From positions 95,527-127,526 of the forward strand of contig NZ_CP045687.1 in the NCBI RefSeq assembly GCF_009601705.1: a stretch of 32,000 bases of DNA, read 5' to 3'. The stretch is from Saccharolobus sp. E5-1-F. Lineage in GTDB: Archaea > Thermoproteota > Thermoprotei_A > Sulfolobales > Sulfolobaceae. Shown piece by piece: positions 7,449 to 25,738 of this stretch (positions are counted from its first letter, which is position 1; every line of letters starts with the position of its first letter). The position numbers and the translations under genes were made by a program. Under the pieces are notes generated by a model. It did not search any database and was not told where the DNA came from. It worked only from the letters and a program-made list of their open reading frames with translations.

Positions 7449-8707
7449 ATGTCTGGGAATTTAAGATGGAAGATCGTTTTGATTGTGTTTGCGTTAATTA
7501 TAGTAGACTACATAGATAGGGGATTAATAAATACTGCATTACCAGTACTAAAGAGTGAATTTCATATAAGTTCTTTTGAAGCAGGAGTCATAGGAAATGG
7601 TTTCACTTTTGGGTATCTTATAATGAACCCATTAGTTGGATACCTTTTAGATAAATATGGGCCTAAAAGGATTTTCACTAGATTCGCAATCTTCTGGGGA
7701 GCTGTGCAAACTGTTAATGTGTTTGCTTTCTCTGCTTTTTACTTTATAGTAACTAGAGTATTGCTAGGAATTGGAGAAGCAGTTGGTTTCCCTGGAGTTA
7801 CAAAGATAGTCGCAAACTGGTTAAGAAAAGATGAAAAAGCTAGAGGTGGTACGATTTCAGACTCTGGAGTGAATTTAGGGATAGTTTTCAGTTCCTTATT
7901 TATGTTAGGATTGTTTTCAATAATTCCTAGTCGAGAATTGGCATGGAGGTTGGGATTTTTAGTTAGTGGTCTTTTGGCTATAGTTCTCGCTATCGTATTG
8001 GGTCGTCTCTTACACGATTTACCAGAACAGCATCCGAAGATTTCTAAAGAAGAATTAGATTACATCTTATCTGGCAGAGAAAAAGTTGACGTAAAAACTA
8101 AGCTACCATTGTCGTATTGGTTAAGTAATAAGAATTACTGGGGATATATGCAAGGTTTAGGAGCACAAGCAGGAATATTCTTCGGCCTATTCACTTGGTT
8201 ACCTTTATATCTTTTTATGCTAGGCATCTTTCTCTATCCTTTACGTTAGAATATACTGCATTAATATGGAGTTTTGGCTTCATAGGAGAGATAGTAGGAG
8301 GTTATGTTGTTGACAAATTAATTAAGAGAAATCCTAATTTAGGTTTCAAAGCAGGGTTTGCAGTCAGTTCTTTATCAGTTACTATAGGTCTTGCTGCTGC
8401 TACTCTAGTTTCATCATCTGCGGAAGCAGTTGAAATATTGATGATAACCTTCTTCTTCTTAAGATGGTCGGGTATTCAGTGGGCTGCACCATCCTTTTTG
8501 GTTTCCTCTGAATTAGCTGGTCAATTTGGCGGTCATATTGGATTTTGGGAAACTCTATGGGGAATAGTAGTACCAATAGTGTTTGGTGCTACTGTGCAAG
8601 TTACTGGAGCATATCTCTTAGGAATGGAAATTCTGATTGGAATAGGCCTTATATACTTCATAGGTACTGTAATAGTAACTAGTTATAAACAAATAAAGGT
8701 GAGCTAA
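7449..8707 (+). pseudogene. MFS transporter (anion:cation symporter / hexuronate-galactonate-type), split by a frame change
   Basis: Two track ORFs (7449..8249 and 8195..8707) overlap in different frames and together make one 12-TM MFS protein. MFS motif A is present (GYLLDKYGPKRIF). The junction ...FTWLPLYLF / ARHLSLSFTLEYTAL... falls at the T5 run 8212-8216. The downstream frame is -1 relative to the upstream frame. Confidence 0.75.
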
Positions 8708-22660: not shown

Positions 22661-23572
22661 ATGCCATTATGTCCTTCATGCGAAATAAGATTTACCACAT
22701 GGCATGATTTAGCCAATCACATGGATTTTATGGCGAACGTTAAGAGTGACAAATCTCATGTAATGTGGCTAAATAGAAATTTATCAATAAACAGAATGGA
22801 GATTGACGAACTAGCATCTGCCTTGGAAAAGTTTTTCTTAACACCCGACAGCTTATCAATGTGGATTAGGACAAGATTTATAGAGAAATTTTATGGAGAT
22901 AATCCTCATCCCTTTATTGTCGCAATGCAAAATCCTACTAAAGGAGTATTATTAGGCTATGTAATTGAACATCAACATTTTTTGAAGAATTGGGTTAAGG
23001 TATTATCATCAATAGTATTCAAAACTGATAAGGACGATGTCTTACAATATGAACTTGAGAATATCTCAGTTGAGTTTATAGGTTATAATGGTAGACCAGC
23101 TCACTACGAGTTATTGCTAAGGATGGGAGAAGCCTTAGGAATGCCGAGAGAGAAAATATTGTCAACACCACCATTACCCTCTACGCAGTCAGCAATAGGA
23201 ACATGGAGGAAAATTGCTGAAAGTAAAACCTGGTTGGAGACGATGGCAGCAATGCATAGTCTCGAATTAGTAGCTGATAGAAGTTTAGTTAAATATGGTG
23301 CTAAATTACACTATTTTAATCCAGAAATACTTTCCTCTGATGAATATCCCCAGGCTGTTAAGGACTTTTTGAGAGAAGGATATGAGGCTGATGTTTCACA
23401 TGCAGGAGAAGCTCTAGAAATGGTTGAGAAATACGCTAAGGAAATTGAAATGAAGGAAAAAGTGCAAGTTGTTGTACTTAAATCATTTGACGCTTTTTCA
23501 AAATATTTATTAGCTAGATTAGAGAGAGGATTTGAAATAGAACCAGGTCTACTAAAGAGGGTGATTAGATGA
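22661..23572 (+). CDS. PqqC/TenA/heme-oxygenase-like (iron-containing redox enzyme family) protein with an N-terminal Cys2-His2-type extension
   Basis: By-eye collinear similarity to PqqC blocks: [70 protein letters not shown] and [13 protein letters not shown] (carboxylate/His pattern). N-terminus [20 protein letters not shown]. Confidence 0.65.
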
Positions 23573-23889
23573 AGATTATTGTTAATGGCAAAGAAGCAGG
23601 TACAAAGGAAAAAGGTTGTGCTCTATGCGGAGGAACTTGGGGAGATTATTATGAGGATATTGATGGCGAGAAGTTGTTCTTCTGTTGTGATATATGTGCA
23701 CTAGAATTCGTAAACATGGCGAATGAGATTAAGAAAAGAACAAATTGGAGGAAAATTGATGAGTTGATAATAAATGGAAATTATTATACGGGAAGGACGT
23801 GCTCGGCTAAGAATGAAAATAAGGAGTATAAATTTTACGTTAAGTTTAATGACGAAGGAGGAGTAGAGACTTTTAAGGAATTAAGCTAA
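23569..23889 (+). CDS. Small TRASH-like Cys4 metal-binding protein (possibly Ta0938 family)
   Basis: C17-x2-C20-x18-C39-C40-x2-C43 (CALCGG...[12 protein letters not shown]), the same architecture as MerH in this window. ATGA start/stop overlap with the upstream gene and GGTGAT SD at 23560-23565. Confidence 0.6.
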
Positions 23890-24153
23890 TGGTTCACATA
23901 AGCCATTTTCTTTTATCCTCATTTTATTTTTAGGTTCACTTAAGGACCTACAGAATAATTTAACATTATCAGATTTGACTAGACAAAGCCAATACTTGTC
24001 TTCAAATCCATCAGGGGTAGCAGTCAATTTCCACGATATTAATAGTTCCACCTCCTCTATATTCTTGGTGTTAAATTCCGTTGAATAACACCTTGGACAT
24101 CTGGCCCTCTTAACCCAAAACGAATAGCCACAATTTTTACACACATAGATCAA
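23881..24153 (-). CDS. DUF35-type Zn-ribbon/OB-fold protein (thiolase-associated)
   Basis: CKNCGYSFWVKRARCPRC rubredoxin-like ribbon, then a beta-rich segment. TTG start in a TTGA overlap with the upstream thiolase-like stop, and GGTGAT SD upstream. Confidence 0.7.
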   Translation of the reverse strand: MIYVCKNCGYSFWVKRARCPRCYSTEFNTKNIEEVELLISWKLTATPDGFEDKYWLCLVKSDNVKLFCRSLSEPKNKMRIKENGLCEPLA

Positions 24154-25280
24154 GGCTCATCACCGTAAACTATTACAGTTGCTGAATTTCCAAAGCCAGC
24201 CATGCTCAGAGATAGACCAACGCTAGCATTTTTAACTTGTCTACTGTCTGCCTCATGCCTAATCTGTAAAAATGCCTCAATTGCTTGAGCTATTCCGCTT
24301 GCCCCTATTGGATGACCTTTAGAATTTAACCCTCCACTGGTGTTTATTGGCATCTCGCCATTAATCTTTGTGTAATCATTATAATATGCCTTCCATCCTT
24401 CTCCTTTCCTTAATAAACCTAACTCCTCAGCCTCAACTATTTCCAAGACTGTAGCCATATCATGAAGTTCAGCAAAATCAACCTTATCAACCTTAGCCAT
24501 TCTCTTGGCAATTAATCCAGCATTTTTCACTGAATTTATTGATAATATATCCTCACGTTCAGACAAATAAGATGTATCCGACGAAGCCCCTATACCTTTT
24601 ATAAATACGGGCTTTTTGGAAAAACTATATGCGTCTTCATCCCTTACCATAACAATTGCTGCTGCTCCATCACTAATTGGGGTAAATTCGTAAAGGGTTA
24701 GTGGATCTGCTATGATAGGTGAATTCAAAACTTCCTCTAAAGACACTACCTTCTGAATATGAGCATATGGATTTAAAGAGCCATTATAGTGATTTTTTAC
24801 TGCCACTAGAGCAAATGCCTCTCTTGGTGCATTATATCTCCTCATATACTCCTTCGTCATCAATCCTGCAAGTGAAGGTAGTGTTAGTCCAGCAACTCTT
24901 TCTTCTGGCGATAATAAGGAGGCTATTACTGATGTAACTTGCTTGGTATTCCTCTCAGACATTTTCTCAACACCTAAGACTAATACGGTTTTGGCAATTT
25001 TAGAATCAAGTAACGATTTAGCAACCAATATTGCAGAACCTCCACTTCCACTAGTATTATCAACCCTAATTGATGGTACGGTGTCAATTGACAAATAGGT
25101 TGTAATTAAGTTATTTATACCAGATAAGGAGTTGAATTCTCCAGAATAGGTGTTAGAAACAACTACAAAATCAATTTCATATTTTCGTACTAATGGTAAC
25201 GCAGCTTCTCCCGCAAGCTCTAACAAGCTCTCCTTTCTCTTCCCAAATCTGGTTAAGTTTGCATCAATAATTGCAACCAT
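24150..25280 (-). CDS. Thiolase-fold (SCP-x/archaeal thiolase-like) protein lacking all cysteines
   Basis: PINTSGGLNSKGHPIGASG and IRVDNTSGSGGSAILVA align by eye to the thiolase C-terminal and nucleophile loops. The 376-aa translation contains no Cys, and Ser77 (AGT, 25050-25052) sits where the nucleophile Cys is expected. Confidence 0.75.
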   Translation of the reverse strand: MVAIIDANLTRFGKRKESLLELAGEAALPLVRKYEIDFVVVSNTYSGEFNSLSGINNLITTYLSIDTVPSIRVDNTSGSGGSAILVAKSLLDSKIAKTVLVLGVEKMSERNTKQVTSVIASLLSPEERVAGLTLPSLAGLMTKEYMRRYNAPREAFALVAVKNHYNGSLNPYAHIQKVVSLEEVLNSPIIADPLTLYEFTPISDGAAAIVMVRDEDAYSFSKKPVFIKGIGASSDTSYLSEREDILSINSVKNAGLIAKRMAKVDKVDFAELHDMATVLEIVEAEELGLLRKGEGWKAYYNDYTKINGEMPINTSGGLNSKGHPIGASGIAQAIEAFLQIRHEADSRQVKNASVGLSLSMAGFGNSATVIVYGDEP

Positions 25281-25411
25281 TCATGTGAGTTTCTACATTT
25301 AAAATATAAAATTAAACTCTCAATAGAGAGAATATAAATCTAGTTTCCTAAACACAAACAGCTATAGTCCTTGTTAGTAAGAAATGTTTATATTTTTTAA
25401 GAAAGAGTGTA

Positions 25412-25738
25412 ATGATAATGGCAATATTCATAGTTCTTTCAAATCTCACAGATAAGGGAGCTGAGACTATAGCAGATAAGCCAGAAAGAATAAAAGAGGT
25501 AAATGAGGAGTTAGCTAAGATAGGAGCTAAGGTAAAGGAGCAATATGTAGTATTTGGTGATATAGATTTTATTAACATAGTAGAAGTGGATAATGTCGAA
25601 ACGTTCCTTAAGGCATTAATTGAGCTGAATAGCAGAGGTACTGTAAGGACAAAGACCTATTTAGCGATTCCCGTTGATGAGGCGATAAAGGCTATTAAGA
25701 CTACACCACCTATTGGTCATCCACATGAAAAGAAATAA
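25412..25738 (+). CDS. GYD-domain protein
   Basis: About 105 aa. (M)AIFIVLSNLTDKGAETI...KVKEQYVVFGDIDFINIVEVDN...TVRTKTY is typical of GYD proteins. The start could be the ATG at 25412 or at 25418, about 26 nt after the A/T box at 25383-25398. Confidence 0.65.
   Translation: MIMAIFIVLSNLTDKGAETIADKPERIKEVNEELAKIGAKVKEQYVVFGDIDFINIVEVDNVETFLKALIELNSRGTVRTKTYLAIPVDEAIKAIKTTPPIGHPHEKK

Follow-up and report, generated by a model that had tools for sequence, protein, structure and literature searches.

The stretch of DNA analysed here (hereafter the window) comprises 32,000 nucleotides (nt) of contig NZ_CP045687.1 of the archaeon Saccharolobus sp. E5-1-F (assembly GCF_009601705.1, positions 95,527 to 127,526 of the forward strand), and carries on its minus strand two overlapping genes that encode a thiolase-fold protein of 376 amino acids (aa), termed alpha, and a small DUF35-type zinc-ribbon protein of 90 aa, termed beta. 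Thiolases are textbook cysteine enzymes, and the pair is of interest for the replacement of both catalytic cysteines in alpha, including that of the nucleophile by a serine. The features of the pair are as follows.

24150..25280, minus strand: alpha subunit of 376 aa, with a thiolase fold of the SCP2/archaeal type (Pfam, PDB and BktB-alpha matches)
25050..25052, minus strand: AGT codon of Ser77, which aligns with the nucleophile Cys of the thiolases 6ESQ and 7YVY
24453..24464, minus strand: H273-D274-M275-A276, counterpart of the SCP2-thiolase HDCF motif (alignment to 6ESQ)
24342..24344, minus strand: Asn313 of the N-x-S-G-G block (NTSGG), invariant in 120/120 homologues and also kept in Cys-type relatives
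24312..24314, minus strand: His323 of GHPIGASG (which starts at residue 322), the nucleophile-activating His in thiolases, invariant in 120/120 homologues
24186..24203, minus strand: C-terminal loop M360-A-G-F-G-N365 (SMAGFGNS from residue 359), a family signature
23881..24153, minus strand: beta subunit, a compact DUF35-type protein of 90 aa (Pfam zf-ChsH2, BktB-beta homology and AlphaFold2 model)
24088..24141, minus strand: zinc ribbon of beta, C5-x2-C8 ... C19-x2-C22, with four invariant Cys
24150..24164, minus strand: translational coupling of the two genes, with GGTGAT at 24159-24164, a 5-nt spacer and a TTG start over the TGA stop (TTGA, 24150-24153), read from the sequence
25298..25310, minus strand: A/T-rich TATA-like box TTTATATTTTAAA, ending 18 nt ahead of the alpha ATG, read from the sequence

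Sequence and structure of the two subunits

Alpha is matched by the Pfam models Thiolase_N (3e-26) and Thiolase_C_1 (1.5e-42); its top NCBIfam match, PRK06064, lies under its cutoff, and no NCBIfam model reaches its cutoff. When alpha is aligned with solved archaeal thiolases by HMMER, the segment IRVDNTSGSGG falls opposite TRVEAACASGS of the M. thermolithotrophicus protein (6ESQ) and KIEAACASGG of the P. furiosus protein (7YVY), which places Ser77, within the signature D74-N75-T76-S77-G78-S79-G80-G81, at the nucleophile position. In the same alignment HDMA pairs with HDCF or HDAF, so that the His is retained and the acid/base Cys is replaced by Met275. The cysteines canonical to SCP2-type and archaeal thiolases (the nucleophile, and the acid/base residue situated in HDCF or in a C-terminal CxG) are all absent from alpha, where Ser77, Met275 and Met360 stand instead, and the other canonical features, namely the fold, the His of HDx, the Asn of NxSGG and the His of GHP, are present. 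The C-terminal loop reads GFGN in the alpha family, where Cys-type relatives have G[TS]G[GA]. A preliminary description of the window, made from the sequence alone, had reported the absence of Cys, Ser77 in the nucleophile loop, the altered HDCF, the retained N..GG (NTSGG at 313) and GHP blocks and the SMAGFGNS loop, and all of these are borne out here.

The translation of 24150-25280(-) contains no Cys at all, a property that is unremarkable locally: 11 of the 28 other open reading frames (ORFs) in the window also lack Cys, and the probability of finding none in 376 aa is about 0.08 at the local Cys frequency of 0.68%. The significance of the protein lies rather in the conserved replacement at two catalytic positions, which goes beyond chance. 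An AlphaFold2 model of alpha (predicted local distance difference test score, pLDDT, of 84) has as its top Foldseek match in the PDB the entry 4YZO, followed by 7YVY and 6ET9/6ESQ at template modelling (TM) scores of 0.86-0.91, and among the lower-ranked matches are SCP2 thiolases, PhlC, BbsB, TbSLP, Ltp2 and Sal.

Beta exceeds the threshold of the Pfam family zf-ChsH2 (PF12172; 27.7 bits against a cutoff of 23.2), and a profile of the partner family matches Trf (6HTJ), 6ESQ_E, BbsA (7PXP_A) and the ChsH2-DUF35 chain 6OK1_B. Its AlphaFold2 model (pLDDT 86) is all-beta and is matched by Foldseek to Trf, BbsA, ChsH2-DUF35 and SSO2064. The part of beta that would correspond to an oligonucleotide/oligosaccharide-binding (OB) fold has no Pfam match, the best PDB matches of the model are DUF35 proteins at TM scores of only 0.44-0.62, and the domain is shorter than usual. 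Beta is thus a minimal DUF35 protein, consisting of a zinc ribbon and a predicted small beta-barrel; the helix with which full-length DUF35 proteins begin is missing. In both structure and sequence, the solved protein closest to beta is Trf (Sso2509, 6HTJ), named 'translation recovery factor' in S. solfataricus, a DUF35 protein in its own right that may derive from, or also act as, a thiolase partner. A partner cysteine was considered as the source of the thiol missing from alpha and was rejected: only the four ribbon Cys are conserved in the partner alignment, and neither the short partners nor BktB-beta contain additional ones.

The four-nucleotide overlap of the genes and the GGTGAT preceding the beta start, both noted in the preliminary description together with the assignment of the second gene to a short DUF35 zinc-ribbon/OB protein, are likewise confirmed. 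The GGTGA stretch, which at the same time encodes the conserved C-terminal G-D of alpha, is a putative ribosome-binding site, and the TATA-like box ahead of alpha is likely to be a promoter, putatively giving rise to a leaderless or short-leader transcript.

Conservation and closest relatives

The homologues compared with alpha comprise the 120 closest database proteins, from Sulfolobales, Thermoplasmata and Marsarchaeota, with identities down to 57%. Ser77, Asp74, His273-Asp274-Met275, Asn313, His323, Gly362, Gly364 and Asn365 are invariant in all of them, M360 and F363 are each kept in 118, and the number of Cys per protein in the family ranges from 0 to 6. A scan of species-representative genomes provided 57 loci, distributed among Sulfolobales, Marsarchaeota, many Thermoplasmata, Sysuiplasma, Pelearchaeum and Halobacteria, with one metagenome-assembled genome each of Nitrososphaerales and Methanomassiliicoccales. 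Of 61 loci compared at position 77, 59 have Ser, two have Thr and none has Cys, and HDM is kept throughout (61/61). The codon at this position is AGY in 56 loci, TCT in three and ACC in two; Cys is never found even though AGY is a single base from a Cys codon, which argues for selection for a hydroxyl. Within alpha, conservation across Sulfolobales, Thermoplasmata, Marsarchaeota and Halobacteria is highest at the residues that line the thiolase active site. In the draft genome of Thermogymnomonas acidicola JCM 13583 (L051), the thiolase gene and the adjoining coenzyme A (CoA)-transferase gene are both fragmented, probably through assembly errors; another record of this species has an intact 378-aa protein (P0066).

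Association with the partner is similarly consistent. A word-indexed search with the 90-aa partner gave only five close relatives, and the partner family was assembled from the loci themselves. A zinc-ribbon ORF of 69-115 aa lies directly 3' of the thiolase gene in all 53 loci with a detected partner, where the two genes overlap by 1-8 nt (mostly 4) or abut, apart from a single gap of 6 nt, and the OB-like domain is shorter still in the partner versions of 69-75 aa. In Halodesulfurarchaeum (L060:6001-7671) alpha and beta are fused in one protein of 556 aa, which supports a physical alpha-beta complex. A 493-aa protein from Micrarchaeota (P0133) and a group with Ser at the nucleophile position and HDAF (P0140, P0165, P0179 and P0183, about 500-540 aa) were also encountered, and their lengths suggest the same fusion.

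The closest characterized relatives of the pair are the two-subunit 'haloarchaeal-type' beta-ketothiolases of Haloferax mediterranei, BktB (HFX_6004/HFX_6003) and PhaA (HFX_1023/HFX_1022), in which the catalytic alpha subunit is reported to have Ser-His-His replacing Cys-His-Cys and a co-transcribed OB-fold beta subunit to be indispensable (PMC7137286, PMC9049629, PMC11205408, reviewing Hou et al., 2013). BktB-alpha has been reported to set substrate specificity, and BktB to be needed in vivo for the formation of 3-ketoacyl-CoA (reviews of Hou et al., 2013). The window alpha is 42% identical to BktB-alpha (HFX_6004) over 372 aa (E 5e-103), and its Ser77, His273 and His323 are identical in that protein, whose motifs read RIDQTSSSGG, ELHDMF, NTSGGL, GHPLGASG and GGFGN. 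Beta matches BktB-beta (HFX_6003) in BLASTP over residues 5-73 with 23% identity (E 2e-4). A rough distance tree (neighbour-joining, no support values) places the window alpha together with BktB-alpha and 4YZO in one group characterized by Ser at the nucleophile position, HDM and GFGN, and leaves the Cys/HDCF thiolases outside it. BktB, which is located on pHM500, shares with the window pair the Ser at the nucleophile position, HDM, NxSGG, GHP and GFGN, as well as a small Zn-binding/OB-fold beta gene that overlaps the alpha stop by 4 nt. The two systems differ in the length of beta (90 aa in the window versus 120 aa for BktB-beta), in the ribbon (CxxC...CxxC versus C..H...CxxC) and in the motifs of alpha (NTS and HDMA versus QTS and HDMF). 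Unlike the setting of BktB and PhaA, there are no polyhydroxyalkanoate (PHA) genes near the window pair, and the Sulfolobaceae are not known as PHA producers.

A still closer relative has been solved structurally. ST0096 of S. tokodaii (PDB 4YZO, 'thiolase-like protein') is 68% identical to alpha over its full length, has the same catalytic motifs and is the top structural match noted above; the entry contains four chains of one sequence and was apparently crystallized without a partner. A literature search for 4YZO, ST0096, PFC_04095 and 7YVY turned up no publication about these structures, nor any function for ST0096. Judged by these sequence relationships, the window pair appears to be a thermoacidophile member of the described Ser-His-His two-subunit thiolase family and not a categorically new system; the BktB/PhaA family and the ST0096 structure are two precedents that the preliminary description had missed.

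Beyond the alpha family, the nearest relatives found in a search of representative genomes also lack Cys at the nucleophile position, and those among them that carry T-S, HDM and GFGN form a haloarchaeal subgroup. A wider clade of bacterial and archaeal thiolase-fold proteins without Cys was also observed (P0136-P0273), in which the nucleophile position holds Pro, Phe, Ser, Asp or Glu and HDAF replaces HDCF; in a Pro-type member from Anaerolineales (L008:6001-7541), a 117-aa ORF overlaps the stop of the thiolase-fold gene.

Function of the pair

The pair probably makes up a Ser-type beta-ketoacyl-CoA thiolase of the BktB/PhaA family, with alpha and beta as its two subunits, a reading to which a probability of roughly 0.6 can be attached. 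It is favoured because Ser77 and HDMA align with the catalytic Cys and HDCF, because the active site is invariant and because BktB-alpha is homologous and has the same motifs; further grounds are the coupled or fused partner with its homology to BktB-beta, the acyl-CoA-related neighbours in Thermoplasmata, and the existence of working thiolase/DUF35 complexes in S. acidocaldarius. In such an enzyme alpha and beta would assemble with each other, probably in the alpha2beta2 composition seen for other complexes of thiolase and DUF35. Ser77, activated by His323, would take the acyl group of acyl-CoA or 3-ketoacyl-CoA as an oxyester. The thioester carbonyl would be polarized by His273, Asn313 and main-chain amides, and His273 or water may substitute for the lost acid/base Cys, the net reaction being a reversible thiolysis or Claisen condensation of short 3-ketoacyl-CoAs. 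Of the three readings offered in the preliminary description, it is therefore the Ser-nucleophile variant that is favoured, by the 42% identity to BktB-alpha and its Ser-His-His set, and the aldolase-like and non-catalytic readings are disfavoured. Two outcomes that the description had named as contrary to its observation, a Ser77 away from the nucleophile position and orthologues with Cys at that site, did not occur.

The genes that accompany the pair in Thermoplasmata fit a 3-ketoacyl-CoA substrate. In 13 loci alpha has, 38-49 nt upstream and on the same strand, a gene for a short-chain dehydrogenase. A gene for a family III CoA-transferase is the immediate neighbour of the pair in 24 loci (27 have one within about 2 kb), being convergent right behind the partner in about 21 loci and directly upstream on the same strand in three. 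Ten loci contain a gene for a dienoyl-CoA-reductase-like flavoprotein of about 553 aa (Oxidored_FMN plus FAD-binding reductase), and a gene for a transporter of the major facilitator superfamily (MFS) is also common nearby. These arrangements (L020, L025-L029, L033, L037, L038, L041, L043 and others) point to an uncharacterized module that could be beta-oxidation-like or a reverse acyl-CoA pathway. The S. acidocaldarius orthologue has a CoA-transferase gene 1 kb away.

Several considerations weigh against a Ser-type ketothiolase. An oxyester is a poorer Claisen acyl donor than a thioester, and there is no obvious general acid/base in place of the lost Cys. The nucleophile position is occupied by Pro, Phe, Asp or Glu in close relatives beyond the HDM group, which are still paired with a small downstream ORF, so the wider Cys-less clade may not use covalent catalysis. 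Beta is shorter than BktB-beta and has diverged from it to the extent given above. ORF scans of the window revealed no neighbouring dehydrogenase, hydratase or CoA-transferase gene. No enzyme assay was found for any member from Sulfolobales or Thermoplasmata, ST0096 having been deposited only as a 'thiolase-like protein', and the identity of the Ser/His/His residues of BktB is taken from reviews and from the present alignment, the evidence summarized in those reviews being PHA accumulation in vivo.

Two other archaeal systems that combine a thiolase with DUF35 provide further points of comparison. The thiolase/3-hydroxy-3-methylglutaryl (HMG)-CoA synthase/DUF35 complex (6ESQ) joins a DUF35 protein to a thiolase with the same subfamily fold (TM 0.9), but its thiolase possesses the nucleophile Cys and HDCF and is encoded together with HMG-CoA synthase. 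No match to HMG-CoA synthase was obtained among the scanned window ORFs of at least 100 aa, nor is it a recurrent neighbour in 60 loci. In S. acidocaldarius, an operon pair of ketothiolase (KT) and DUF35 protein is soluble and active only upon co-expression and works with a ketoacyl-CoA reductase that belongs to the SDR (short-chain dehydrogenase/reductase) type and a dehydratase; seven KT/DUF35 pairs were counted in that species in the same study. It resembles the window pair in being a Sulfolobales thiolase/DUF35 operon, and an SDR gene also neighbours the Thermoplasmata orthologues. This pair, compared here by its published description, is another paralogue, from the saci_1103-1126 cluster, and the S. 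acidocaldarius orthologue of the window pair lies in a different gene neighbourhood.

A part in the 3-hydroxypropionate/4-hydroxybutyrate (3HP/4HB) cycle as the acetoacetyl-CoA thiolase was considered and rejected. In M. sedula the orthologue is ABP95449/A4YG97; from accession order we infer it to be about Msed_1290, a gene that has been listed as uncharacterized and as down-regulated in autotrophy; the characterized thiolase of the cycle is Msed_0656.

Among the alternatives to a ketothiolase, a Ser-dependent acyltransferase or acyl-CoA thioesterase survives best, yet appears unlikely. Here a Ser77-His323 acyl-O-enzyme would be passed to water or to an O or N acceptor, with no C-C chemistry. 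Such a role would accord with the loss of both Cys, including the acid/base required for the enolate, alongside conservation of a Ser-His pair and of the residues that form the oxyanion hole; with the CoA-transferase neighbour, which fits acyl shuffling; and with PhlC, a homologous DUF35-associated protein that is an acyltransferase and not a thiolase. KAS III-like enzymes in which Cys is replaced by Ser, such as DpsC, resemble it as well. It is opposed by the requirement in vivo for BktB, the closest characterized homologue, in forming 3-ketoacyl-CoA, and by the short-chain dehydrogenase gene directly upstream in the 13 Thermoplasmata loci, which fits a 3-keto- or 3-hydroxyacyl-CoA substrate.

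The preliminary description had suggested an analogy with the repurposed Ltp2-ChsH2 complex, in which case the pair would be a retro-aldolase that converts 3-hydroxyacyl-CoA non-covalently to an aldehyde or ketone and a short acyl-CoA, with DUF35 shaping the cleft. Like the window pair, Ltp2-ChsH2 (6OK1) and Sal-Shy (9MYR) combine a thiolase fold that lacks the nucleophile Cys with an obligatory DUF35, and both are matched by Foldseek at TM scores of about 0.8; the Pro and Phe relatives, moreover, suggest a clade without need of a nucleophile. In Ltp2, Tyr294 of YDHF is the base, His296 contributes the oxyanion hole and Tyr344 is the acid, Sal has Tyr302 and Cys304 of YDCY with Gly at the nucleophile position, and YDxF has been equated with the thiolase HDCF motif (PMC12329534). 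The catalytic Tyr of YDHF/YDCY is absent from alpha, which has HDMA there with an invariant His273, and the second catalytic residue (Tyr344 or Cys304) is missing too, Met275 standing at the position of Cys304. His323 is found 50 residues past the His of HDM, which equals the spacing from Tyr294 to Tyr344 in Ltp2 and from Tyr302 to Gln352 in Sal, and by this motif spacing it would be the counterpart of Ltp2 Tyr344 and Sal Gln352. Both thiolase His that are replaced in the aldolases therefore stay in alpha, which leaves the analogy unsupported. The DUF35 of the aldolases is, in addition, a domain of a MaoC hydratase (ChsH2 or Shy), whereas that of the window is a free 90-aa protein and no MaoC match was obtained among the window ORFs scanned; the similarity of alpha to Ltp2 is low and partial (E 9e-18, compared with 5e-103 to BktB-alpha). 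A retro-aldolase of the Ltp2/Sal kind is accordingly considered improbable.

In the course of these comparisons it was observed that PDB entry 4U4E, an uncharacterized 'putative thiolase' of Sphaerobacter thermophilus, has YDSF at the HDCF position and G-G-S-S, with no Cys, at the aligned nucleophile position, a signature that reads as that of an Ltp2/Sal-type aldolase and not of a thiolase.

There is also little to recommend an inert scaffold or a CoA-ester-binding subunit that organizes other enzymes. Both catalytic Cys have been lost, DUF35 proteins are known as scaffolds and ST0096 is annotated as thiolase-like only, but the active-site residues are the most conserved of the protein from Sulfolobales to Halobacteria, no second thiolase gene recurs alongside the pair in 60 loci, and BktB-alpha is reported to determine substrate specificity. 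Finally, a strain-specific lesion or decaying pseudogene, for which a single base change from TGT to AGT would suffice, is ruled out by the orthologue survey, in which Ser (or, in two loci, Thr) occupies position 77 throughout and the ORFs are intact and partner-coupled everywhere.

A large and strictly conserved archaeal family without either Cys, reported in haloarchaea to make 3-ketoacyl-CoA, poses the question of how Claisen chemistry is derived from serine. It is tentatively possible that the Ser-type pairs employ a mechanism new for thiolases, either acyl-O-serine Claisen/thiolysis chemistry with a His base or non-covalent C-C cleavage, to which the Pro and Phe relatives would point, and that in Sulfolobales and Thermoplasmata they perhaps belong to an uncharacterized acyl-CoA pathway and not to PHA synthesis. 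The family is not confined to haloarchaea: Sulfolobales, Thermoplasmata, Marsarchaeota and other groups have it too, accompanied by a minimal DUF35 partner, and the availability of an orthologue structure (4YZO), thermostable proteins and Sulfolobus genetics makes the mechanism directly testable. There are also consequences for annotation: Ser-type genes are routinely named acetyl-CoA acetyltransferase, and they pass for ordinary thiolases in metabolic reconstructions of the 3HP/4HB cycle, mevalonate supply and fatty acid synthesis in archaea.

Genes surrounding the pair in the window

The neighbours of the pair in the window encode TenA/PqqC-like and Ta0938-family proteins in convergent orientation, a divergently oriented GYD-domain protein, an M48 peptidase and MFS transporters, a context that was considered as a clue to function and found uninformative. 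The two convergent genes occupy 22661-23889(+). The first encodes a 303-aa protein with an N-terminal C2H2 zinc finger (PF16293) and a TenA/PqqC/haem-oxygenase-like domain, and gives a weak match to the CADD family. It is coupled by a 4-nt overlap to the gene of the 106-aa Cys-rich Ta0938-family protein, the 3' end of which overlaps that of the DUF35 gene by 9 bp in convergent orientation. In the Thermoplasmataceae locus L004, a TenA-like gene is present about 4 kb from the thiolase gene. The GYD-domain protein is encoded at 25412-25738(+), divergently from the thiolase gene, and in Marsarchaeota (L001/L002:10619-10813) a GYD gene occurs about 1.5 kb from the orthologue; the proximity in both settings may be due to chance. 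Elsewhere in the window, a 266-aa MFS_1 ORF at 7449-8249(+) is overlapped by a 170-aa ORF without a Pfam match at 8195-8707(+), and the two may represent a transporter gene split by a frameshift.

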